NCBI RefSeq assembly: GCF_018977255.1
Contig: NW_024704742.1
Span: 18,416,001-18,480,000, forward strand
Length of the DNA: 64,000 nucleotides
Direction of reading: 5' to 3'
From: Callorhinchus milii
Taxonomy: Eukaryota
Position numbers and translations under genes: made by a program. The notes under the pieces are model-generated. The model was not told the DNA's origin. It searched no databases and saw only the letters and a list, made by a program, of their open reading frames with translations. Below, piece by piece: positions 35,530-51,169 of the stretch (within the stretch, counting starts at the first letter, position 1; every line of letters begins with the position of its first letter).

Positions 35530-35908
35530 CTCAACGCTCCACTGGCTCCCCATTACCGAACGGATTGACTTCAACCTCTTCACTCCCGGTGCACCTCCCT
35601 ACCTCTCCAACCTCCTCACTCCCCAGTCCACCACCCGGCACCTCCGCTTGACTGGCACCAGCCTCCTGCTTGTCCCTCGCACCCTCCGACCCATCAATGA
35701 AGGTCGTGCTTTCAGCCACTACCCCCCGAAAATCTGGAAGACTCTCACTCAATCCCTCACCTTGCCACCTCCTCCGCTTTTTTAAGTCACTTGTGAAAAC
35801 CTTCCTTTTCGACCGTGTTTACAGTCACCTTCCACCCCCGGCTCAGAGTCAGGCTCTGCCACTGTTAAGCGCTCTGAGACGCTACCCTGCATGGAGGGCC
35901 ATTGTTGT
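35530..35908 (+). mobile_element. L2 3' end
   Basis: LHWLPITERIDF...GRAFSHY.PKIW...KTFLFDR. Confidence 0.8.
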
Positions 35909-35988
35909 TATACCACTATGGCTATTTTGGGCTCAACTTTATGCTTATAGATCCAAAATTCTGTTTAGTATTTCCCAGTAAGACTGCT

Positions 35989-36693
35989 CCAGTCGGGGAG
36001 CGGCAGCAGGACAGCGCGGGGAGGAGCCTGGGCCTACTGACCCAGGTACTTAAACTCGACGCCGGAGCGAGTGCAGCCAGTCGGGGAGCGGCAGCAGGTC
36101 AGCGCGGGGAGGAGCCTGGGCCTACTGACCCAGGTACTTAAACTCGACGCCGGAGCGAGTGCAGCCAGTCGGGGAGCGGCAGCAGGAGAGCGCGGGGAGG
36201 AGCCTGGGCCTACTGACCCAGGTACTTAAACTCGACGCCGGAGCGAGTGCAGCCAGTCGGGGAGCGGCGGCAGGACAGCGCGGGGAGGAGCCTGGGCCTA
36301 CTGACCCAGGTACTTAAACTCGACGCCGGAGCGAGTGCAGCCAGTCGGGGAGCGGCGGCAGGACAGCGCGGGGAGGAGCCTGGGCCTACTGACCCAGGTA
36401 CTTAAACTCGACGCCGGAGCGAGTGCAGCCAGTCGGGGAGCGGCGGCAGGACAGCGCGGGGAGGAGCCTGGGCCTACTGACCCAGGTACTTAAACTCGAC
36501 GCCGGAGCGAGTGCAGCCAGTCGGGGAGCGGCGGCAGGACAGCGCGGGGAGGAGCCTGGGCCTACTGACCCAGGTACTTAAACTCGACGCCGGAGCGAGT
36601 GCAGCCAGTCGGGGAGCGGCGGCAGGACAGCGCGGGGAGGAGCCTGGGCCTACTGACCCAGGTACTTAAACTCGACGCCGGAGCGAGTGCAGC
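35989..36693 (+). repeat. Tandem array of 8 x 88-bp GC/CpG-rich monomers at the L2 5' end
   Basis: AGTCGGGG starts at 35991, 36079, 36167, 36255, 36343, 36431, 36519, 36607; units differ by only 1-2 substitutions. Confidence 0.97.
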
Positions 36694-36918
36694 TAGGGAG
36701 GGGAGGGAGGTGTGGGGACGGAGCGGGGAACTGCGACGTCATAGATTAGTTTTCAGGTGAGTGCGCGCGCACAAAAAAAAAAAAAAAAAAAACCCTCTGC
36801 GCCCCCCCCCCCCAGGGCTCACATCAGAGCCCACTATGGTCCTGTTGGGTTCGATGCCCCAATCTGCGGGATAATGCCATCCACCTGACCGCGCGCTCCC
36901 GATCCCCGCGTGCACACT

Positions 36919-39900
36919 ATTGCTGCCGCTTTGACCCGAGCCCCCTCATTCCCTACCTCCCTACTCCCTCCTCTCTTCCCCCAAACCCTCCCCCCTCTGC
37001 AACTCTCCCGTTGTGTCCTCCTCTCTCTGCGTCCCTCTCCTCTTCTATCCCCACTTGACCCTCCCACAACCTCCCTCTGCTCCAGCCTGGGAATCCTCCG
37101 CCGGGCTCACCGTGGCACTCGGCGTTGGCTGTCCAGCAGCAGCCACACCGACTGCCCCATTCCCCACCACTCTCGCCACCCACCCCGGACACAGACCCGG
37201 GGAGTCAACCTCTCCTCCCTCATCCCCATCTCCCCCACCCCTGCCTCACAACCTGGACCCCCCTCCCCTCCCACACACCCTTCTGTCAACCGCTCCCTCC
37301 ACATCGGACTGCAAAATGTCCGCTCCCTCTGCAACAAGGCCCTGGTCATCAACGATCTCATCCTTGATGAGAACGTTGATATCATGGCCTTGACAGAAAC
37401 GTGGCTCACCCCAGGCGACACCTTCCCCCTCACGGAGGCCACGCCACCCGGCTACACCTCCCACCACATCCCCCGCCCCAACCGCCGTGGCGGTGGTGTT
37501 GCCCTTATCTCAAGGACACCACTTGCCCTATCCCCCTACTCCACTGGCTCTTTCCCCTCCTTCGAGCACCTCACCCTCTCCCACCCCTCATTCCTCTCCC
37601 TTAAAATCCTCCTCCTCTACCGGCCCCCTAAAACCTCTCCCACCTTCATCTCTGACATTTCAACACTCCTCACATCTCTTTGCCTCTGCTCCGATCGCCT
37701 CATCATCCTGGGCGACTTTAACCTACACTTCACCCCCTCCTGCTCCATCTCCACAGACTTCTCTTCCCTGCTCTCCTCACTCAACCTTTCCCTACACATA
37801 AACTCCCCCACTCACAGTCACGGCCACCCACTCGATTTGGTGATCACCCGGGGCCTCAGTGTCTCGGATGTCACTATTACCGACAAGGCCATCTCCGACC
37901 ACTACTTCATCTCCTTCACCACCTCCACCCCCCTCCCCACCTCCACCAGACCCACCACCATCTTCTACCGCCCTTGGAAGAAGTTACCCCCACAATCCCT
38001 AACCGATGCCTTGGAGTCCTCTGAACTCCTCTCCCTCTGGCCTTCAACCCTCACCGACCCCTCTTCTCCTCTCTCCCTCCTCCACAATATCCTCTCCTCC
38101 ACACTCGATACTCTTGCCCCCATCACTTCCCGCACTGTCTCCTACTCCCGCTCCTCCCCCTGGTACACCACCCACCTCCGCTCACTGAAATGCCAGGTGC
38201 GGGCTGCTGAGCGCACCTTTGTCAAATCCGGCTTAACGGTCCACCGACAAATCTGGCTGGACCTCCTCAAAATTTACCGCTCCACTCTAGCCTCGGCCAA
38301 GTCGTCCTTCTACTCCAGGATAATCCTGGAGGCGAAGAACAACCCCAGGCTACTGTTTTCCACCACATCCCGACTCCTCCGTCCCCCCCGCCACCCCGCG
38401 CAGGTCATCTCCTCCAACCTTCACTGCGAGGAGATGCTGGATTTCCTTGAATCCAAGATCAAGGGAATCCGCTCCGCGGTCACTTCCCCTCCAACTTCCA
38501 CCCACCACCCACCCCTTCCCTCCCACACTCCGACTCCTACCCATCCTCCCCTACACACCTTCGTACCCGTTTCCCCACCCTCTGTCACTGAACTCATCCT
38601 ATCCCTAAAACCAACCACCTGCTCCCTTGACCCCATCCCCACTCCACTCCTTATCTCCCAGCTCCATTTTCTTGCCCCACACATCACTGACATCATAAAC
38701 CTGTCCCTCTCCTCTGGCTCTGTCCCCATTCCATTAAAAACTGCCATCATCACGCCCACCCTGAAAAAACCCTCCCTTGATGCGTCGCAGCTATCAAGCT
38801 ACCGGCCCATCTCCAACCTCCCCTTTCTCTCCAAGGTCTTGGAAAGAGTTGTCGCCTCCCAACTGCGCTCTTTCCTCTCCACCCATTCTCTTTTTGAACC
38901 CCTTCAGTCAGGTTTCCGTGCTGCTCATAGCACAGAAACTGCCCTGGTCAAGGTCACCAATGATATCCTGACCATCTGTGACCAGGGCTCCCTCTGTCTC
39001 CTCGTCCTCCTCGACCTATCGGCAGCATTCGATACGGTCGACCACACTATCCTACTCCACCGCTTGTCCTCCCACCTCAACCTTCAAGGCACTGTCCTTG
39101 AATGGTTTAGGTCGTACCTTTCTCACCGTCTTCACTTCGTCTCAACGAATGGCTTCTCCTCCACCCCCCGTACTGTCTCATGTGGTGTCCCTCAGGGCTC
39201 TGTCCTCGGTCCCCTCCTCTTCACCCTCTATATGCTCCCCCTTGGTGACATCATCCGCAAACATGGGGTTAACTTCCACATGTATGCGGATGACACCCAA
39301 CTCTACCTTTCCTCCTCTACTCTCAACTCCACGACCACCGATGTCCTGACAGCCTGCCTGTCCGACATCGAGTCCTGGACGAGAGACAACTTTCTTCAGC
39401 TCAACGTGCAAAAAACCGAGGCCCTCCTGATTGGCTCACGTCAGCGCCTCCGCACCTCAGGCGCTGACACCATCAGCATCCAAGGCTGCACTCTCCACCT
39501 CTCAAAGCCAGTCAGGAACCTCGGCGTTTTGTTCGACCCTGAGCTGTCCTTTCTCCCTCACATCCGCACCACAACTGGCACCGCCTTCCATCACCTCCGG
39601 AATATCGCCAGATTACGGCACTACCTCACCCCTCACGCTGCTGAAACCCTGGTTCACGCCTTTGTCACCTCAAGGCTGGACTATGGGAACTCTCTCCTCG
39701 CCGGCCTTCCCGCCACCTCCCTCCACAAGCTGCAGGTCATTCAGAACTCTGCAGCTCGTGTACTGTCCCGCACCAGGCTTCGGGACCACATCACTCCCAC
39801 CCTCGCTCGCCTCCACTGGCTCCCCATCCCCCAGAGGATTGATTTCAAGATCCTCATCCTCACCTACAAGGCCATTCACGGCCTTGCTCCCTCCTACCTC

Positions 39901-40179
39901 TCCAACCTACTATCCCCCTACCTACCTGCCCGTACCCTCCGTTCCTCTGGCTCCGGTCTGCTCCACGTCCCCCGCCCCAACCGCCCTACTATCGGTGGTC
40001 GGGCCTTCAGCCTCTCAGCCCCGAGGCTCTGGAACTCCATCCCCCAGTGCCTTCGCCTTGCTTCCTCCCTTTCCTCCTTCAAGGCCGGTCTCAAAACCTT
40101 TCTCTTTGACCGTGCCTTCAGCTCCCCTCTCGACTCTCTTCCTCCTCCTCGCTCCCTCCCTTCCCTCCCCTCACCCTGA
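36919..40179 (+). CDS. L2 ORF: Pro-rich N-terminal extension, APE endonuclease, reverse transcriptase
   Basis: Motifs LQNVRS, LTETW, LGDFN, LDLV, SDH (APE) and [33 protein letters not shown] (RT). Start placed at ATT 36919, which aligns with the ATG of copy B. Confidence 0.92.
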
Positions 40180-42988
40180 CCATTTCCCCCTCCTCTCTCC
40201 CCTCCCTTCCCTCCCCTCACCCTGACCATTTCCCCCCTGCTCGGGTCATGACCCAACTGTGCAGCGCCTTGGGACGTCCTCCTGACGTGAAAGGCGCTCT
40301 ATAAATGGAATCTTGTTGTTGTTGTTGTTGTTGTTTTGTCATAAAATTTAAGATACCACCAAAGTGTGGGAGATGCTTGATTTGGAAGGAATGTTTTTGC
40401 ATCTCATAAAAAAAACAACTTCTAAATTAAGACTCCTCAGTTGCATGTGAACTTACGCTTTATGACAGAATGGTTTTACAGGCCAAGATGTTGTGGGATT
40501 TAAAGCCTGATGTTTGTCTTTCAACTGATCTGTAACTATTACATTTTATTCTTCTGCTTTTACTTATTGTCACTGTCACAGACTCTGCTTTTGCCTTTAT
40601 TCCCCAAGCACCTCCTCTTCTCCATAGTCACCCGATCTCCCTGGCACTCTCTCTGGGTTGATATCTTCAGGGTGGTCTTGCTGGCAATGTCTGCCATGTC
40701 AGCTCTTGAGCATTTCCCCTGGGCGTCACATAGTTTTCTGTCTCCTCTCCATCATTCTGTCTGTTGATTCTGCTCTGATTGAGTTCTCAAGTCTATTATT
40801 GGCCACCCAAATGAATCCAGGGAGAAGCCACAAACCAAGCTCCTGCAGGGTCTCAGTACCTGCCCTATTTAGCTCTCATCTTTATTCTGTCTTGCACCAA
40901 TAAAACTCCATTCACTCTTAAGCAATTTAGTTGTTGTTAAGCCCTGCATTAACCTGGTCTAACTTTTTTTTACAATATCCAATAATACTTTCTTAACTAA
41001 AGTATTTGCAATTGAAGGTGAGTTTCAGTGTTGGGGTTAGCAATGGCTTCAGTGGGTTTTAGTTGGGTCAGGTCATTTCTTTAGTAAAATCTACTTGTAT
41101 ATAGCAACAACTTGTATTTATATAGCACCCCACATGTAGGGTAGCTTCCCAGAACACTCGACAGTGGCGAAGCATGACTCTGAGCTGTGGGGAGGTGACC
41201 GTAGGCACGGTTAAAGATCTTCAGGTACAATCTGAAGATGGGGAAGGATAAATTCTTTTAAGTAAGGACCATTTGCATCTGCGTAATGCTGGAGGGTGTG
41301 AAGAATGACAATATATTGTTTTGTACAATACAATATATTGTATTGTTTCAATACACTATTCAATGCCTTGATTCTGCTTATCCTCATTCCCTAAAGACTC
41401 TTCAACAACCTCTCTCACACACATTGAATTGTGCAGAGTTACATAGAAATATATAGAATGTTACAGCACATATATAATTAGTTAAACTATGCCAGTGTTT
41501 ATACTCCACATTAGTCTCCACACCTCCTAATCTCCTCTCCTATATTCCTCAATTTCCTTCTCTCTCACGTATTATTGATAATTTCTGCTTCAACAACAGC
41601 TTCTAGCAGTGAGTTCTCCATAAATATCATCTCTCTCAATATCCCTTTTATTTGATCAAATTTGTTCTTCCCTCTGTCTGTGTTGTTTGTCAAGAAAGGT
41701 CACCACCTGGTAGCAATAATAGTTGTGACATTGGAACATAGTCCATAATCTTCTCTGCGTCAGAAAATCTAACTATGAAGATACTGATTCATGTTCATCA
41801 TTGATGAATCATTTTAAGCGATCTACAGGATGTATATATAAAAAATAAACTGCATTGAAGTTATTTTCTATTTGTTCACACCATTGTTTTCCTCACCCGT
41901 TTCCTCATTGACTAACTTGGAGCACTTACTATTTGCAAACCTGACAGTGGTGATGATCAAAGTGTAGAGCACAAATGTTATATCCTTCCTCATCCCTTAG
42001 ACAAGAAATAGCTGATTCCAACAATGACCAATTTTCAATAGCAGTGAAAGGGCAGACTCTGCTATATTGCCAGTAATTGCAGGCTTGTTCACTGCACAGC
42101 AAGTCTGGCTCATCAGCAGGACCTGGAAGGGCAGACCAGTCACTGGGGGCAGGGAGTCATCCCACTCAGCTCCTGTTAACCCTGCAAGCCAAAGCCATAA
42201 CCGGTAGGGTGGTCCTAGCTGGACCAGCAGCGGGAAAGCTTGCCAGACAGCAATATCAATGGCAAACTATGCAGTTTTGGCCGATTAGATTCCAGCAGTA
42301 CCCCACCCCACACTCTGAGGTCCCCAAGCCTTGGTTCCTGCCAACCTGCACCTAATGCTCTCCAGAATGAACATGATGCATCCCTCCAGGGAGAGTTTGT
42401 GTTCCATTCCAACAATCTATCTCTGGAATTTCCATGCACAGGTGGGATGCATGGAATTCTCAGCTTGGTTTGGATACTCTTAAGCATGGTGATGGGTTTC
42501 AGCTTGTAGCAGATACCTGGCTGACCAAAAAAAAACAGCATTAAAAGATTGGTTCAGATAAAGAAGCCCCTTTGACCTACTTTACCTGATCCTTCCATAT
42601 CTACCATCTTCCTACAACAGAATCAAGCTGTTTTGTAAGTGACGTTTGATTGGATAAAGTTAAAGGATCAATTAAAAATAATCTATGGCCATTTATTTCT
42701 TTGAGTGAAGCAAGTCATTCAATCAGATAACTCAAAAAGTAACCCTTTAGAAGGTCCATAGTCACTTACAATGTGGTTTGATATATAAATTTAGTTAGAA
42801 TGGTTTTAGTTCAACAGTGGGACACTGCTACCAACACCCTGCTTGAGATGTTCCAATACCACAAACATGTGGTAGTGGTATTGTAGTGTTCACTTTGAGA
42901 ACTAGCATTGACAGTGTCCAATGTTAGTTCAGGTTTGGATTCAAACTTGTTTCCTCAGATTAGAGCTCAACATTGGGGAGAAATGTAT

Positions 42989-44196
42989 TATATCCAGTCA
43001 GCCTAACGTCAGTAGTAGGGAAACTTCTAGAGACTATAATCCAGACAAAATAAATTTTCACTTAGAAAAATATGGGTTAATAAAGGGCAGCCAACACGGA
43101 TTTGTTAAAGGCAGGAAGGATGATGGTAGTGCAGTTGATATAGTTTATATGGATTTTCAAAAAGTGTTTGATAAAGTGCCACAGAAGAGGTTGGGACAGT
43201 GGCAGCATGGATACAGAACTGGATGGAATACAGAAAGCAGAGAGTTGTGGTGAACGATTGTTTTTCTGACTGGGGGTGAAGTGTGCAGTGGTGTCCCCGA
43301 GGGGCAGTATTGGGACCACTACTCTTTTTGATCTATATAAATGGGTATAGACTTGGGTATAGGGAATAGAATTTCCAAGTTTGCAGATGATACTAAGCTA
43401 GGAAAAGTAGTAAACGGTGAGAATGATAGTAGCAGACTGCAAGAGGATATAGATAGCCTGAAACGATAGGCAGGCACATGGCAGATGAAGTTTGATGTGG
43501 AGAAACACGAAGTGATGGATTTTTAGAGGAAGAATGAGGACAGGCAATATAGCTGATGGTACAATCTTAAAGGGGGTGAAGGAACAGAGAGACCTGGGGG
43601 TTCATATAAATAAATCTTTGAAGGTGGCGGGACAGGTGGATAAAGCTGTTAAACAAAGCATACAGGATACTTGGCTTTACAAATAGGGGCATAGAATACA
43701 AAAGTCGGGAAGCTATGATAAATCTTTATAAAACATTGGTTATGCCTCAGCTAGAGTGCTGTGTTCAGTTATCAGGAGAGGGTAGAGAAGCCAGGATTAT
43801 TTTCCTTGCAGCAGAGAAGGTTAAGAGGAGACTTAATAGAAGTTTACAAAATGATGAGCGGATTTGCTAGGGTGAAGAAGGAGAAACTATTGCCACTGGC
43901 AGGTGGGTTGATAACCCAAGGACACCGATTTAAAATAGTTGTAAAAGAAACAGAGGGGAGTTGAGGAGAATTTTTTTCACAGAGTGAGTTGTTTGGAGCT
44001 GGAATGCATTGCCTGAAAGGGTGGTGGAAGCCAATTCGATAATAACTTTTAAGAGAGAAGTAGGTAATTATTTGGGGAGGACAAGTTTGAAGGGGAGAGC
44101 AGGGGAGTGGGATTGATTTGGATAGGTCTTTTAAAAGAGCTGGCACAGACACGATAGGCTGAATGGTGGTCTTCTGTGCTGTATAATTCTATGACT
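42989..44196 (+). mobile_element. Degenerate CR1 LINE (RT to 3' end)
   Basis: QHGFVKGR, VDIVYMDFQKVFDKVP, KFADDTKL, RRLRGDLIEVYK; CR1-type 3' end ...attctatga. Confidence 0.88.
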
Positions 44197-44309
44197 CCAC
44201 AGCAGATTCGAGTGATATGATGGTTGTTTCATAAGATACTTGTTTGAATTAAACCGATATCCAGTGAAGCAGTACTGAGATCCATTGAAAGTGCACCCTC
44301 CGCATCACC

Positions 44310-44555
44310 ATTTGAGGTCACACTTTCAGCCACTACGCCCTGAAACTGTGGAAAACTCCCCCTCAATCCCTCCACCTTGCGCACTCTCTCTCCCCTTTTT
44401 CAAGACTCACCTGAAAACCTTCCTTTTCGACCGTGCTTACGTACACCTCCCCGCCACCCCACCTCTGGCTTGAAGTCAGGCCCTGCCACTGTTAAGCGCT
44501 CTGGAGACACTACCCTGCGTGGAGGGCACTATATAAGTGAAAGTTGTTGTTGTTG
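44310..44555 (+). mobile_element. L2 3' end
   Basis: [14 protein letters not shown] and (TTG)n tail. Confidence 0.78.
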
Positions 44556-45177
44556 AAATATAGACCCCTGCAATTCAAAACGGGAAAGGGAGTGCTGAAA
44601 TCTTTGGGCTCCACAATGAGTCATGGTTGAAGGGTGAACAGGTTGGAATGCAGTGCTCGAATCTGAAGTCAATGCATAATTATCAACTGAAATTTCACTA
44701 TATGATGAATATCAGCTCAAATCTATCATGAGGTTTTGCATCTCATTGTGTGACTGGAGTCAAAAATGTTTAAAGTTTGTTTAAAATAGCCAGAATAAAA
44801 GGAGAGCAAATGATACATTTACATCATGTACTGTTACAGTAATTAGAATAAACATGACAAATGTAGATTGTTTTCACTAGAACACACAGAAAGTTAGAAA
44901 GGGGTCTTCTAAAGATCTTAAAGACTGAAAGGTTTGAGAGGTGAAATATTGGTAGATTATTCCCACTGGTTGCTGAATCTGTGAGAAGTGCTCTGAGTTT
45001 AGGATTGTCACTGTTTTTCTTTTAATCACTCAGAATTTAAGTGAGAGTTGCAGGAGGTAAAATGTAGCTAGTTCCATTCAATGATTTTCAATATCTGCTT
45101 TTGATACAATAAAGGACTGAAACTGGAACCAGATTTGACGATATGAGATATGATTGACATTATTGCTCATCCGCAAG

Positions 45178-45183
45178 TTTATT
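45178..45183 (-). promoter_or_regulatory. Candidate ASIC5 polyadenylation signal (AATAAA on -)
   Basis: tttatt on +, about 325 nt past the stop codon; based on position only. Confidence 0.3.
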
Positions 45184-45507
45184 CAGATTTGCCTTCAATT
45201 TTTAAACAATAAAATACTTAAATTCTTATGTTATTGATAAATATATGGATAAAAGTGGCTGTTTGGATTTTTGTTTCATAGATGTAAAAATTCATGAAGG
45301 AAACAGAAATTGAGAATAAATGTGTGAGATTTGAGCCCGGATTCATTGTGTTCTCACATCAAATCTGTTATGAAATCTCACAAATTTACCCCCAGTAAAT
45401 ATTCCCTCCCTTGGACATTCTCTTCAATTACAGCTTGTTCAGCTTGTTCAATAAAATGACCAGGTTAAAAAATACCCACAAGGATTCTCTCTTCTCACCC
45501 AATTGGT

Positions 45508-45701
45508 TTAAAAGACTTTTGGTTGCTTTGTTTCTTTGCGATGAGAAATCTGAATGACAGAAATGTTGTTCACACCATCTGGCAGTTTTAGCAACCAAAC
45601 TAATCCCAGCCAATAGGATTTGATGATAAGGTATTCGAGGATTTCAATAATAGTTATGCAGCTTGCACCACAGAACAACCCGAGCTGTCCTCCGATGTCA
45701 C
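45508..45701 (-). CDS. ASIC5: ASIC5 terminal exon, TM2 with GAS selectivity motif
   Basis: cag|GT GAC...TAA; GDIGGQLGLFCGASCITIIEILEY...KQPKVF*. Confidence 0.95.
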
Positions 45702-45756
45702 CTGTGAAATGGCAATAGAAAGAAACATCTATCATCACTGACTTTAAACTCATCTA

Positions 45757-46406
45757 CAACAACAACAAAATTACATTTGTATCGCGCCTTTCACATCGGG
45801 AGGACATCCCAAGGCGCTGAACAGACAGAGTTGCGGACCTGAGCTGAGGGTCGGGGTGGGGGATGGCAGGGGGGGAAGCAGGCAGATTGAAAGCAAGGAC
45901 AAAGAGGAGGGTCTTAAGTTGGGTCTTGAAAGTGTTGAGGGAGGGGGTGAGACAAAGAGACTGCGGGATGGAGTTCCAAAGAGTGGGGGCAGAATGGAGG
46001 AAGGTCCACTCAACGATAGTGGGGCGAGCAAGACAGGGAACGTCAGGCAGGCCAGAGCCTGCTGAGTGGAGGGAGCGAACAGGGTGGTAAGGGGTTAGGA
46101 AGTTGGAGAGGTAGGGGGAGCAAGACTGTGGAGGGCTTTGAAGGAGAGGACCAGGATCTTGAACTGTATTCTCTGTGTGATGGAAAGCCAGTGGAGTTGG
46201 GCAAGGATGGGGGTGTTAGGGTCGCGGAACCTAGTGCGCGGAGAGGACACGGGCTGCAGAGTTCTGGATGATCTGTAGCCTGTGGAGGGAGGAGTTGAGG
46301 AGGTCGACCATCAGTGAGTTTACATAGTCGAGCCTCAATGTAATGAAGGTGCATATGAGGGTTTCGGCGGCCTGCGGTGTGAGACAGTGTCGGAGCCGGG
46401 GGAAGG
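45757..46406 (-). mobile_element. Older L2, 3' part (interrupted by copy B)
   Basis: Degenerate L2 C-terminal coding sequence, 3' stem-loop and (TTG)n tail; continues at 50193-50548. Confidence 0.85.
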
Positions 46407-49400
46407 CAACAACAACAACAACAACAAGATTCCATTTATAGAGCGCCTTTCACGTCAGGAGGACGTCCCAAGGCGCTGCACAGTTGGGTCATGACCCGAG
46501 CATTGGGGGAAATGGTCAGGGTGAGGGGAGGGAAGGGAGGGAGCGAGGAGGGGGAAATGGTCAGGGTGAGGGGAGGGAAGGGAGGGAGAGAGGAGGGGGA
46601 AATGGTCAGGGTGAGGGGAGGGAAGGGAGGGAGCGAGGAGGAGGAAGAGAGTCGAGAGGGGAGCTGAAGGCACGGTCAAAGAGAAAGGTTTTGAGACCGG
46701 CCTTGAAGGAGGAAAGGGAGGAAGCAAGGCGAAGGCACTGGGGGATGGAGTTCCAGAGCCTCGGGGCTGAGAGGCTGAAGGCCCGACCACCGATAGTAGG
46801 GCGGTTGGGGCGGGGGACGTGGAGCAGACCGGAGCCAGAGGAACGGAGGGTACGGGCAGGTAGGTAGGGGGATAGTAGGTTGGAGAGGTAGGAGGGAGCA
46901 AGGCCGTGAATGGCCTTGTAGGTGAGGATGAGGATCTTGAAATCAATCCTCTGGGGGATGGGGAGCCAGTGGAGGCGAGCGAGGGTGGGAGTGATGTGGT
47001 CCCGAAGCCTGGTGCGGGACAGTACACGAGCTGCAGAGTTCTGAATGACCTGCAGCTTGTGGAGGGAGGTGGCGGGAAGGCCGGCGAGGAGAGAGTTCCC
47101 ATAGTCCAGCCTTGAGGTGACAAAGGCGTGAACCAGGGTTTCAGCAGCGTGAGGGGTGAGGTAGTGCCGTAATCTGGCGATATTCCGGAGGTGATGGAAG
47201 GCGGTGCCAGTTGTGGTGCGGATGTGAGGGAGAAAGGACAGCTCAGGGTCGAACAAAACGCCGAGGTTCCTGACTGGCTTTGAGAGGTGGAGAGTGCAGC
47301 CTTGGATGCTGATGGTGTCAGCGCCTGAGGTGCGGAGGCGCTGACGTGAGCCAATCAGGAGGGCCTCGGTTTTTCGCACGTTGAGCTGAAGAAAGTTGTC
47401 TCTCGTCCAGGACTCGATGTCGGACAGGCAGGCTGTCAGGACATCGGTGGTCGTGGAGTTGAGAGTAGAGGAGGAAAGGTAGAGTTGGGTGTCATCCGCA
47501 TACATGTGGAAGTTAACCCCATGTTTGCGGATGATGTCACCGAGGGGGAGCATATAGAGGGTGAAGAGGAGGGGACCGAGGACAGAGCCCTGAGGGACAC
47601 CACATGAGACAGTACGGGGGGTGGAGGAGAAGCCATTCGTTGAGACGAAGTGAAGACGGTGGAAAGGTAAGAGCTAAACCATTCAAGGACAGTGCCTTGA
47701 AGGTTGAGGTGGGAGGACAAGCGGTGGAGTAGGATAGCGTGGTCGACCGTATCGAATGCTGCCGATAGGTCGAGGAGGACGAGGAGACAGAGGGAGCCCT
47801 GGTCACAGATGGTCAGGATATCATTGGTGACCTTGACCAGGGCAGTTTCTGTGCTATGAGCAGCACGGAAACCTGACTGAAGGGGTTCAAAAAGAGAATG
47901 GGTGGAGAGGAAAGAGCGCAGTTGGGAGGCGACAACTCTTTCCAAGACCTTGGAGAGAAAGGGGAGGTTGGAGATGGGCCGGTAGCTTGATAGCTGCGAC
48001 GCATCAAGGGAGGGTTTTTTCAGGGTGGGCGTGATGATGGCAGTTTTTAATGGAATGGGGACAGAGCCAGAGGAGAGGGACAGGTTTATGATGTCAGTGA
48101 TATGTGGGGCAAGAAAATGGAGCTGGGAGATAAGGAGTGGAGTGGGGATGGGGTCAAGGGAGCAGGTGGTTGGTTTTAGGGATAGGATGAGTTCAGTGAC
48201 AGAGGGTGGGGAAACGGGTACGAAGGTGTGTAGGGGAGGATGGGTAGGAGTCGGAGTGTGGGAGGGAAGGGGTGGGTGGTGGGTGGAAGTTGGAGGGGAA
48301 GTGACCGCGGAGCGGATTCCCTTGATCTTGGATTCAAGGAAATCCAGCATCTCCTCGCAGTGAAGGTTGGAGGAGATGACCTGCGCGGGGTGGCGGGGGG
48401 GACGGAGGAGTCGGGATGTGGTGGAAAACAGTAGCCTGGGGTTGTTCTTCGCCTCCAGGATTATCCTGGAGTAGAAGGACGACTTGGCCGAGGCTAGAGT
48501 GGAGCGGTAAATTTTGAGGAGGTCCAGCCAGATTTGTCGGTGGACCGTTAAGCCGGATTTGACAAAGGTGCGCTCAGCAGCCCGCACCTGGCATTTCAGT
48601 GAGCGGAGGTGGGTGGTGTACCAGGGGGAGGAGCGGGAGTAGGAGACAGTGCGGGAAGTGATGGGGGCAAGAGTATCGAGTGTGGAGGAGAGGATATTGT
48701 GGAGGAGGGAGAGAGGAGAAGAGGGGTCGGTGAGGGTTGAAGGCCAGAGGGAGAGGAGTTCAGAGGACTCCAAGGCATCGGTTAGGGATTGTGGGGGTAA
48801 CTTCTTCCAAGGGCGGTAGAAGATGGTGGTGGGTCTGGTGGAGGTGGGGAGGGGGGTGGAGGTGGTGAAGGAGATGAAGTAGTGGTCGGAGATGGCCTTG
48901 TCGGTAATAGTGACATCCGAGACACTGAGGCCCCGGGTGATCACCAAATCGAGTGGGTGGCCGTGACTGTGAGTGGGGGAGTTTATGTGTAGGGAAAGGT
49001 TGAGTGAGGAGAGCAGGGAAGAGAAGTCTGTGGAGATGGAGCAGGAGGGGGTGAAGTGTAGGTTAAAGTCGCCCAGGATGATGAGGCGATCAGAGGAGAG
49101 GCAAAGAGATGTGAGGAGTGTTGAAATGTCAGAGATGAAGGTGGGAGAGGTTTTAGGGGGCCGGTAGAGGAGGAGGATTTTAAGGGAGAGGAATGAGGGG
49201 TGGGAGAGGGTGAGGTGCTCGAAGGAGGGGAAAGAGCCAGAGGAGTAGGGGGATAGGGCAAGTGGTGTCCTTGAGATAAGGGCAACACCACCGCCACGGC
49301 GGTTGGGGCGGGGGATGTGGTGGGAGGTGTAGCCGGGTGGCGTGGCCTCCGTGAGGGGGAAGGTGTCGCCTGGGGTGAGCCACGTTTCTGTCAAGGCCAT

Positions 49401-50192
49401 GATATCAACGTTCTCATCAAGGATGAGATCGTTGATGACCAGGGCCTTGTTGCAGAGGGAGCGGACATTTTGCAGTCCGATGTGGAGGGAGCGGTTGACA
49501 GAAGGGTGTGTGGGAGGGGAGGGGGTCCAGGTTGTGAGGCAGGGGTGGGGGAGATGGGGATGAGGGAGGAGAGGTTGACTCCCCGGGTCTGTGTCCGGGG
49601 TGGGTGGCGAGAGTGGTGGGGAATGGGGCAGTCGGTGTGGCTGCTGCTGGACAGCCAACGCCGAGTGCCACGGTGAGCCCGGCGGAGGATTCCCAGACTG
49701 GAACAGAGGGAGGTTGTGGGAGGGTCAAGTGGGGATAGAAGACGAGAGGGACGGAGAGAGAGGAGGAGAGAGCGGGAGAGATGCAGAGGGGGAGGGTTTG
49801 GGGGGAGAGAGGAGGGGGGCGGGAGGGAGGGGGTGAGGGGGCTCGGGTCAAAGCGGCAGCCATAGTGCGCACGCGGGGACCGGGAGCGAGCGGTCAGGTG
49901 GATGGCATTATCCCGCAGATTGGGGCATCGAACCCAACAGGACCATAGTGGGCTCTGATGTGAGCCCTGGGGGGGGGGGGGGGGGGCGCAGAGGTTTTTT
50001 TTTTTTTTTTTTTTTTTGTTTTTTGTGCGCGCGCACTCACCTGAAAACTAATCTATGACGTCGCAGTTCCCCCGCTCCGCCCCCACACCTCCCTCCCCTC
50101 CCTAGCTGCACTCGCTCCGGCGTCGAGTTTAAGTACCTGGGTCAGTAGGCCCAGGCTCCTCCCCGCGCTGTCCTGCTGCCGCTCCCCGACTG
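46407..50192 (-). mobile_element. Full-length LINE-2 copy B (same family), one 5' monomer, three 1-bp frameshifts; in the last ASIC5 intron, sense to ASIC5
   Basis: Reverse complement of copy A with few substitutions outside one block; ORF split into track ORFs 49417-49872, 47436-49658 and 46606-47553; (CAA)n tail at 46407-46427. Confidence 0.95.
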
Positions 50193-50548
50193 AGCAGAGC
50201 GGATCATGGCGCAAATATGGGATAGAAAGGATAGTTGAGAGTCGAACAAGACTACAAAGTTCGGGACTGGCTTACTAAGCTGGAGCAACCATGGATGGTG
50301 ATGCTGTCAGCGCCTGAGGTGTGGAGGCGCTGACGGGAGCCAATCAGGAGAGCCTCGGTCTTGTTAACATTCAATTGAAGAAAGTTAGCTCTCATCCAGG
50401 ACTTGATGTCTGACAGACATTCTGTCAGGACAGAAGTAGTCCTGGAGTCAAGGGTGGAAGCAAAGAGGTAGAGTTGGGTGTCATCCGCATACATGTGGAA
50501 GTTAACCCCATGTCTGCAGATGATATCACCAAGAGGGAGCATACAGAT
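50193..50548 (-). mobile_element. Older L2, RT part (upstream portion of the interrupted element)
   Basis: [25 protein letters not shown]...LFDSQLSFLSHI; joins the 45757-46406 piece. Confidence 0.85.
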
Positions 50549-51169
50549 GTTGTGGAGGAGCAAAAAAATCCCAGTTCATCCAGTCTCTGCTCATAGATGA
50601 AACCACTCATCCATCGTATCATCCTAGTAAAACTCCTCTGCTCCCCCTCTATCGCCTTGACATCTAACTAACAATTTATATAGGCTTAGCATTTTCTCTT
50701 TGCTTTTCTATCCTGCACTTCTATATATAAAATTTAAGGTTCCATTAGCTTCCATTAGCTGCTGGAATTCTATTAGGTGGGGTCTCTCGTCAACACTGCT
50801 GTAGGATCTTTAACATTGCAATGAATAGGCAAATGGGATCTCTGTTTGGATGGCCAAGTTTGTAATATGCAAAATAGGAGTATTTGTTTAATGTCAGAAT
50901 GCATATACAGCATCCAAACACCCACATATCCAAGTACTTACATGTACTGTAAGGCAACAGATCATCAGGTTACTGGGTCTGACACAAGTGAAATTTGCCA
51001 ATTAAACTTTGAATTGAGATCATGCTTCAGCATACAGCAGTGCATTTGTTACCTTTGTATGCCCAAAGTTATGCAAACCATTCCTTTTTACAAGTACTAA
51101 ACTTTCTAACCGTAAACGATTTAAATAAAGTGATAAATGACTAATTTAAAATGTTCTATGCCCATATCT

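Follow-up and report, generated by a model that had tools for sequence, protein, structure and literature searches.

Full-length copies of a LINE in the genome of Callorhinchus milii begin at the first 2-4 bases of an 88-bp monomer (CCAGTC), whatever the number of monomers they carry, and the monomer number changes after insertion. The element is a young, ORF1-less, CR1-group (L2-like) LINE that is probably still active. The reading which we favour, and hold to be fairly probable, is that its 5′ UTR is a monomeric promoter array like the 5′ UTR of L1Md, in which monomers would start RNA at their own first bases. Two copies, A and B, lie in the window, i.e. the whole stretch of 64,000 nucleotides that was analysed. 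The features of the window are as follows.

35989..36692, + strand: 5′ end of LINE copy A, made up of eight CpG-rich 88-bp monomers (TRF, unit-by-unit variants)
35989..35994, + strand: CCAGTC, initiator-like motif at the start of unit 1, recurring at each unit start
36047..36054, + strand: TACTTAAA of unit 1, recurring every 88 bp; sole A+T-rich stretch of the unit
36693..36888, + strand: non-repeated 5′ UTR ('tether'), opening with CTAGGG (sequence)
36889..40179, + strand: single long ORF, 1096 codons from stop to stop (ORF list, Pfam)
40139..40236, + strand: 45-46-bp tandem repeat in the 3′ UTR (TRF, 2.2 copies in A)
40284..40333, + strand: 3′ terminus of copy A, in which a conserved tail motif precedes (TTG)7; no poly-A (sequence)
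46407..50192, − strand: LINE copy B, with one monomer (50106-50192) and a broken ORF (blastn of A against B, frame check)
50224..50560, − strand: older related LINE fragment hosting copy B (blastn, 81% to A 39214-39554)

The array of copy A was resolved by TRF as an 88-bp repeat in 8.0 copies over 35989-36693 (99% matches, score 1375), which bears out the eight near-identical units reported in the earlier note. Unit starts lie at 35989 + 88k. The array start given in that note holds and the end does not: base 36693 is the first of the non-repeated 5′ UTR, and the array proper stops at 36692. The 46-nt core of the unit matched nine times in the window (8 on the + strand, 1 on the − strand) and was absent from 100 shuffles. 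The unit is 69% G+C and, as counted before, contains 8-9 CpG: 9 in a circular count (observed/expected 0.88) and 8 where the 17A variant is present. TACTTAAA occupies unit positions 59-66 instead of the offsets 57-64 first assigned to it, while its placement at -32 to -25 from the A of the next CCAGTC was correct. Units 1-3 carry the variants 17A, 17A+23T and 17A+24G, respectively, and units 4-8 are mutually identical. The 17G of the TRF consensus is local to the copy A array, the commoner form genome-wide being 17A. The lone unit of copy B resembles unit 1 of copy A; a special role of the first unit was nevertheless dropped, because 17A is merely the commonest variant in the genome.

Downstream of the array, copy A (about 35989/35990-40333, + strand) continues into a tether with an A run of ~20 (about 36773-36792) and a C run of ~12 (about 36802-36813). 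The first 97 nt of the tether show a weak likeness to the unit (score 44; shuffles 32.4 +/- 4.8), and a degenerate ninth unit was rejected, as 22/1000 shuffles score equally high. The array-tether zone is highly variable among copies, with CTAGGG... and CCCCGGGG... forms and changing G-run lengths.

One long ORF only is found between the 5′ UTR and the tail of copy A. It contains Exo_endo_phos (2.6e-15, residues 143-338) and RVT_1 (8.3e-37, residues 626-879) domains of Pfam. Copies A and B have the same 3′ end, the conserved motif plus (TTG)7. This structure, a single ORF with an apurinic-type endonuclease and a reverse transcriptase (RT) and a microsatellite tail, fits the CR1 group. The relatives of the ORF are teleost fish proteins with 41-47% identity, one of them named after X-element; these matches, being to unnamed proteins, were uninformative for naming a clade. 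Rfam includes a family for the UnaL2 3′ element, a narrow model, and no match to this L2-type 3′ stem-loop was obtained at E up to 1 over 35900-40400. ORF1 is absent from copy A, as PMC13343379 states for chondrichthyan L2s; according to the same paper, poly-A within the CR1 group is unique to Zenon.

The copy A ORF has no in-frame ATG before codon 166 (36889-37390), a codon that lies inside the endonuclease domain. A conserved QNVRSL stretch is located upstream of this codon, and the Pfam match begins at residue 143. The two ATGs further upstream, at about 36836 and 36879, are out of frame, and each begins only a very short ORF. Since an in-frame ATG is absent before codon 166, translation may use a non-AUG start codon or be initiated in some other way. 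The 3′ UTR repeat also varies in number, with 2.2 copies in A and 3.2 in B (46505-46646).

Copy B is 98.55% identical to A over 3654 aligned columns (blastn). Its ORF is broken, the longest open stretches in the three frames being 762, 355 and 218 codons. The 5′ end of copy B is the C of CAGTC; thus the shared CAGTC start of A (near 35990) and B (50192), with eight units against one, was rightly recognized at the outset. The older fragment hosting copy B continues just beyond the 3′ end of B in flank alignments, in which no target-site duplications of copies A and B were seen. CTGCTC stands upstream of both window copies. It was rejected as a true 5′ leader on the count of position 1, which is C in only 22/73 copies, and before copy B it may derive from the older element into which B inserted.

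The 14-kb arrangement of A and inverted B (35989-50192) occurs three times in the assembly, on contigs 1, 8 and 44. The further two sites lie near 23.918-23.933 Mb of contig 8 and near 55.7-69.8 kb of contig 44. Both contain many single-base homopolymer deletions, and B has ~1.6-1.8 units there, not 1. They are probably haplotigs or unpolished duplicates, and the three eight-unit loci were not accepted as independent insertions: they are one locus, present thrice in the assembly.

Genome-wide searches were carried out on an assembly of 991.5 Mb. A two-unit query gave about 40 arrays. Two pattern searches blind to unit count were added, one for the array/UTR junction with up to 2 mismatches (34 places) and the other for a 5′ UTR motif 16-47 nt past the junction with up to 3 mismatches (49 places). 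The 93 loci examined, six of which duplicate others, were mostly 5′ parts; they were parsed with blastn, with edges uncertain by 1-2 nt. The genome holds about 495 unit cores and 286 unit-to-unit junctions and therefore roughly 200 arrays, with a mean of ~2.4 units each. The examined loci account for 303 of the about 495 units and cover about half of the arrays; the unit counts rest on an assembly that holds error-rich duplicates of the copy A locus.

All arrays found by the unit alone (27/27) are followed by the LINE 5′ UTR motif within 15-39 nt. Thus, for the half of the arrays that was examined, the unit is not a free satellite but belongs to the LINE; a monomer occurring mainly as an unlinked satellite, which the earlier note had named as a refuting finding, was not seen there. 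Across the 93 loci the arrays have 1-24 units, and all adjoin the 5′ UTR motif, three with a diverged motif excepted. The 3′ tail motif matches the genome 23,511 times with up to 2 mismatches, as against about 200 5′ arrays, so that ~1% of copies reach the 5′ UTR. The excess of tails may reflect extreme 5′ truncation, or abundant non-autonomous elements with the same tail.

The 5′ ends of the copies were tabulated, as the earlier note had advised. After removal of the six duplicates and of two arrays with a 5′ end beyond the sequence analysed at that locus, 85 independent resolved insertions remained (one start, at 66, was set by eye). The ends are not scattered: 73/85 lie at unit offset 1-7 (binomial p 3e-67 against 7/88). 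Within this range the starts were distributed as 12, 23, 18, 12, 2, 2 and 4 at offsets 1 to 7, respectively, and the other 12 fall at offsets 12, 13, 16, 30, 40, 43, 47, 50, 50, 61, 66 and 67. The start of RNA at unit boundaries proposed in that note is thereby well supported, as far as the phasing of 5′ ends in sequence can indicate.

The first bases of the copies were compared. Position 1 is taken as flank, because it is C in only 22/73 copies. AGTC is preceded by C in 37/57 copies (p 2e-10). Of the 18 copies whose first base is the A, 12 have G in front of it (p 0.004 against an expectation of one third), 5 have T and one has A. In L1 insertions, an extra G arises by reverse transcription of the cap. 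The initiator consensus is YYANWYY, to which CCAGTC matches. The frequent G in front of the A agrees with a capped Pol II transcript beginning at the C/A of CCAGTC. At 12 loci that start at offset 4 (GTC), the preceding base is T in 7/12 (p 0.07), as if A had been read as T.

The G excess bears on a quite different origin of the phased ends, namely RNA processing. Each unit would then be or contain a ribozyme that cleaves itself at its 5′ edge, and read-through or array transcripts would be trimmed mostly to one unit, which would explain both the sharp phasing and a mode of exactly one unit. HDV-like or twister-type ribozymes cut at their own 5′ edge in other non-LTR elements. Ribozyme-processed non-LTR elements are known (PMC8501958, in part). 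A G before the A start, however, suits a cap and not a cleaved end, and many copies are multi-unit. In addition, no Rfam family was matched over 35900-40400 at E up to 1, save for a chance miRNA-like match, and the fold of the unit RNA has a z of -0.21, 78/200 shuffles folding equally well. A self-cleaving ribozyme at the 5′ end was rejected as a candidate on the absence of an Rfam match and of excess fold stability, and we consider it very improbable.

According to the promoter-array reading, the 5′ UTR consists of 1 to 24 whole 88-bp CpG-rich monomers and then the non-repeated tether. Each monomer would be a Pol II core-promoter module with the initiator at its own first bases. The promoter activity of the monomers is deduced from their motifs and from the analogy with L1. 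Transcripts may begin at any monomer start, and daughter copies would therefore have monomers in whole numbers. The A+T-rich TACTTAAA of the monomer upstream, at TATA distance, may help; the initiator, not the box, seems to set the start. Arrays would be shortened by an internal start or by in-register deletion. Their lengthening or reshuffling would be due to unequal exchange in DNA and probably also to switching of the reverse transcriptase, in register, from one monomer template to another. A search for RNA runs over 36606-37800 gave none. Four runs in contig form were compared with 46300-50500; contigs do not reveal starts, and their coverage of the unit is not readable as expression. A unit-to-unit junction was seen in one contig of a run that is only guessed to be RNA, which indicates nothing firm.

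A strict version of upstream dependence was considered. Here TACTTAAA of monomer k-1 would be the TATA box for the initiator of monomer k, and a monomer would be without a promoter of its own. The first monomer would go untranscribed, at least one monomer would be lost per jump, singles would be dead on arrival and arrays would have to be regrown. The geometry (-32 to -25) agrees with such a role, as does the position of TACTTAAA as the only A+T-rich stretch of so G+C-rich a unit. On the other side, TACTTAAA is a weak TATA match, and its placement would arise by chance with ~7% probability (estimated as 6 of 88 phases). Although potential sources are most often copies with one unit, none of the 72 copies reaching the 5′ UTR motif starts at the array/UTR junction (CTAGGG), ~30 nt past the last TACTTAAA. 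Zero-unit copies were thus rejected (0/72), and TACTTAAA alone does not set the start, because no copy begins at that junction.

The distribution of unit number bears on the same question. It was obtained from the union of the two count-blind searches, which gave 72 independent loci. One unit is present in 32 of them, two in 10, three in 4, four in 5, and five, six, seven, eight, ten, eleven and 24 units in 1, 1, 2, 1, 1, 1 and 1, respectively; 11 are truncated inside a unit and 2 are unresolved. Single-unit copies are the largest class in this count-blind sample, with 32/59 complete copies. The subfamily with 85T in the last unit has a mean pairwise divergence of 2.15% (n=14) versus 1.13% (n=43) and is the older one. 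Its 24 loci comprise 15 with one unit and two truncated inside a unit, the rest having 1.4-24 units; mostly single-unit, it multiplied nonetheless with the same start.

The dominance of single-unit copies with the same start kept, the older 85T subfamily included, is not predicted by an obligatory upstream-unit promoter. A mode of one with a long tail would still follow from a few multi-unit sources with shortened daughters. The strict version also gains from the regrowth routes that were seen (in situ change, junction re-copies and block patterns, described below), and from the consideration that a lone unit cannot expand by unequal exchange, long arrays being then inherited or RT-built. A further point against it comes from two insertions with unrelated flanks, L016 (contig 40) and L050 (contig 6), whose common 10-nt leader suggests, for some RNAs, a start at the first unit or upstream of it. 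In both, the leader TAGAGCGGCA, which resembles unit positions 9-17, stands directly before the first unit; L016 has 7 units and L050 16, with different variants. On balance the strict version, with its consequences, appears unlikely. If true, the upstream-unit rule would offer a clean case, in nature, of a promoter that has to be rebuilt each generation.

Phased whole-unit arrays could also result from a single first-unit start combined with in-register deletion or duplication. In the corresponding model only the 5′-most monomer starts RNA, by means of an internal downstream promoter of the kind that many LINEs have, and the monomer number varies by RT switching, unequal exchange and deletion. 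Single-unit copies would then be self-sufficient and could be the commonest, whole-unit arrays would begin at the same bases, and differing unit numbers would be expected on the same 260-bp body stretch. The model is in line with the traces of template jumping and snap-back seen at 5′ junctions, and with the changes of copy number in situ. Each unit has the same start motif and context, however, and it would be hard to see how only the first could fire; moreover, mouse L1 monomers are individually active (PMC9022269 and PMC6454616, in the excerpts available). A single start of this kind seems to us quite unlikely.

The unit number is not tied to lineage. On contig 1, clusters with zero mismatches in the core comprise 28 arrays, of which 17 are singles and 6 doubles, the others having 6, 6, 8, 13 and 14 units. 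For 9 of the 14 longest arrays (5.7-13 units), the nearest neighbour has 0.5-3 units, with zero differences in the 260-bp body stretch. Because a single unit cannot misalign with itself, long arrays on such young bodies would be inherited or built during copying.

Changes in situ were also found. Loci L034 and L035 have a common upstream flank (1491 aligned bases, 14 mismatches, 99.1%) and the same junction, with 2 and 14 units, respectively; L079 and L098 likewise have a common flank, with 1 and 2 units. The remodelling of arrays suggested in the earlier note is thus well supported, one duplicated locus (L034/L035) having 2 versus 14 units. Within the arrays, units 14-18 of L065 repeat its units 8-12, and L050 contains a run of four cons/17A pairs. 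These block patterns point to unequal exchange or slippage in a multi-unit register.

Extra sequence at the 5′ junctions was compared with controls. Direct matches of at least 5 nt to the element head within 40 nt upstream were present in 9/73 insertions versus 1/70 controls (Fisher p 0.01), and those of at least 6 nt in 5 versus 1 (p 0.11); L051, with a tandem 10-nt re-copy, is an example. Inverted matches of at least 6 nt within 20 nt upstream occurred in 9/73 versus 4/143 controls (p 0.008), and those of at least 5 nt in 19/73 versus 28/143 (p 0.18). At L044 (contig 881), the 17 nt of unit positions 5-21 recur in inverted orientation without a mismatch, directly adjoining the 5′ end of the array. 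This inverted copy forms a hairpin-like palindrome with a 5-nt loop. Template jumping and snap-back of the reverse transcriptase are mechanisms from R2 and L1 work. The head re-copies, though modest in number, are consistent with template jumping or snap-back at the RNA 5′ end.

These re-copies would find a place in a two-unit rule, in which a monomer fires only the next initiator, each RNA is therefore without its driver, and RT rebuilds the array by in-register transfer of cDNA to another transcript. The end of the nascent cDNA, complementary to every monomer start, would move onto an internal monomer, and head re-copies at 5′ junctions and mosaic arrays would be by-products. Such a rule, which strikes us as rather improbable, would if true be the LINE counterpart of retroviral strand transfer via the R repeat.

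The nearest parallel to the favoured promoter array is found in mouse and rat LINE-1 (L1Md A, Tf, Gf), where excerpted descriptions likewise give tandem CpG-rich monomers of variable number and a non-repeated tether. Full-length 5′ ends of mouse L1 pile up at one monomer position, read as the start of the parent, in the excerpts of PMC6454616, which describe the way in which L1 monomers are regained as unclear. Tandem motifs of 70-100 bp occur in the 5′ UTRs of other mammalian L1s (PMC5381506, in part). Unlike L1, the present element has no ORF1 and no poly-A and ends in a (TTG)n tail; it is an analogue of L1Md, not a relative. The monomer is 88 bp here and about 200 bp in mouse L1. The mouse start lies inside the monomer and leaves an outermost partial one (PMC6454616, as excerpted), whereas here the start coincides with the unit edge, as set by the array/tether junction, and the arrays therefore have whole unit numbers. 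Young full-length mouse L1s mostly have two or more monomers according to the excerpts of PMC9022269, while the mode here is one. Promoter activity was measured in mouse L1, and is only presumed for the 88-bp monomer.

Other known elements have parts of this arrangement. In HeT-A of Drosophila, RNA synthesis is driven from the upstream repeat, by the 3′ end of the neighbouring element in a head-to-tail telomeric array. This is the same logic as in the upstream-unit proposal, with whole telomeric elements in HeT-A and 88-bp pieces inside the 5′ UTR of a dispersed element here. The insect LINEs jockey, I factor and F element have an internal promoter with a CAGT-type initiator as the very first bases. 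The start motif at the first bases of the element is common to them and to the present copies, which begin at CCAGTC in 73/85; the insect promoters are single-copy and rely on downstream elements, whereas here the start motif is repeated in each unit.

The suspicion that such an array was undescribed is weakened, as 5′ arrays in the CR1 group are already in print: the Fig. 4 legend of PMC13343379 (Genome Biol Evol 2026) reports some ORF1-less CR1-group elements with a 5′ 'repeating subunit'. Like the present LINE, these elements of the CR1 group have one ORF only and, near the 5′ UTR, a tandem array of subunits that is specific to the species; their subunits number 1-5 and measure 100-500 bp, against 1-24 copies of 88 bp here. 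The words tandem, monomer and promoter are absent from its main text, and an analysis of start sites, phasing or turnover was not found there. Searches of the literature for monomer promoters in L2 or CR1 turned up L1 studies only. Start-site phasing or array turnover in L2/CR1 was likewise not found in the literature searched; the supplements of PMC13343379, which lay outside the search, might list the family. The present analysis adds a unit of 88 bp in 1-24 copies, phasing in whole units, a likely cap signature and re-copies at the junctions.

It has long been asked how a LINE can keep its promoter, given that copying begins at the very start site of that promoter, and rodent L1 is almost the only system in which this has been studied. 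The 88-bp family provides an independent, very young case in a different LINE group. Its advantages are the small unit of 88 bp, sharply phased starts, a likely cap signature and 1-24 units on near-identical bodies, and start choice, unit loss and unit gain should therefore be legible from sequence and a few reporter constructs.

Two minor observations concern the surroundings and the sequence of copy A. At 35820-35915, ~75-170 bp upstream of copy A, there is a likeness to the diverged 3′ tail of a LINE or SINE, with a motif that includes GCGCT and ends in ttgttgtt, and copy A may have landed beside an older tail. Several other insertions, L024 and L051 among them, lie within tails of that same family. 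In a C-rich 150-bp stretch of 36890-37060, copy A has 16-22 substitutions against L018 (contig 44) and L069 (contig 8), nearly all at C positions, while the 1499-bp upstream flank has 0 mismatches. The nearest neighbour of copy A in this stretch is 5.5% away, whereas most copies have neighbours at 0%. Local clustering of mutations, gene conversion or an artefact of polishing could account for these substitutions.
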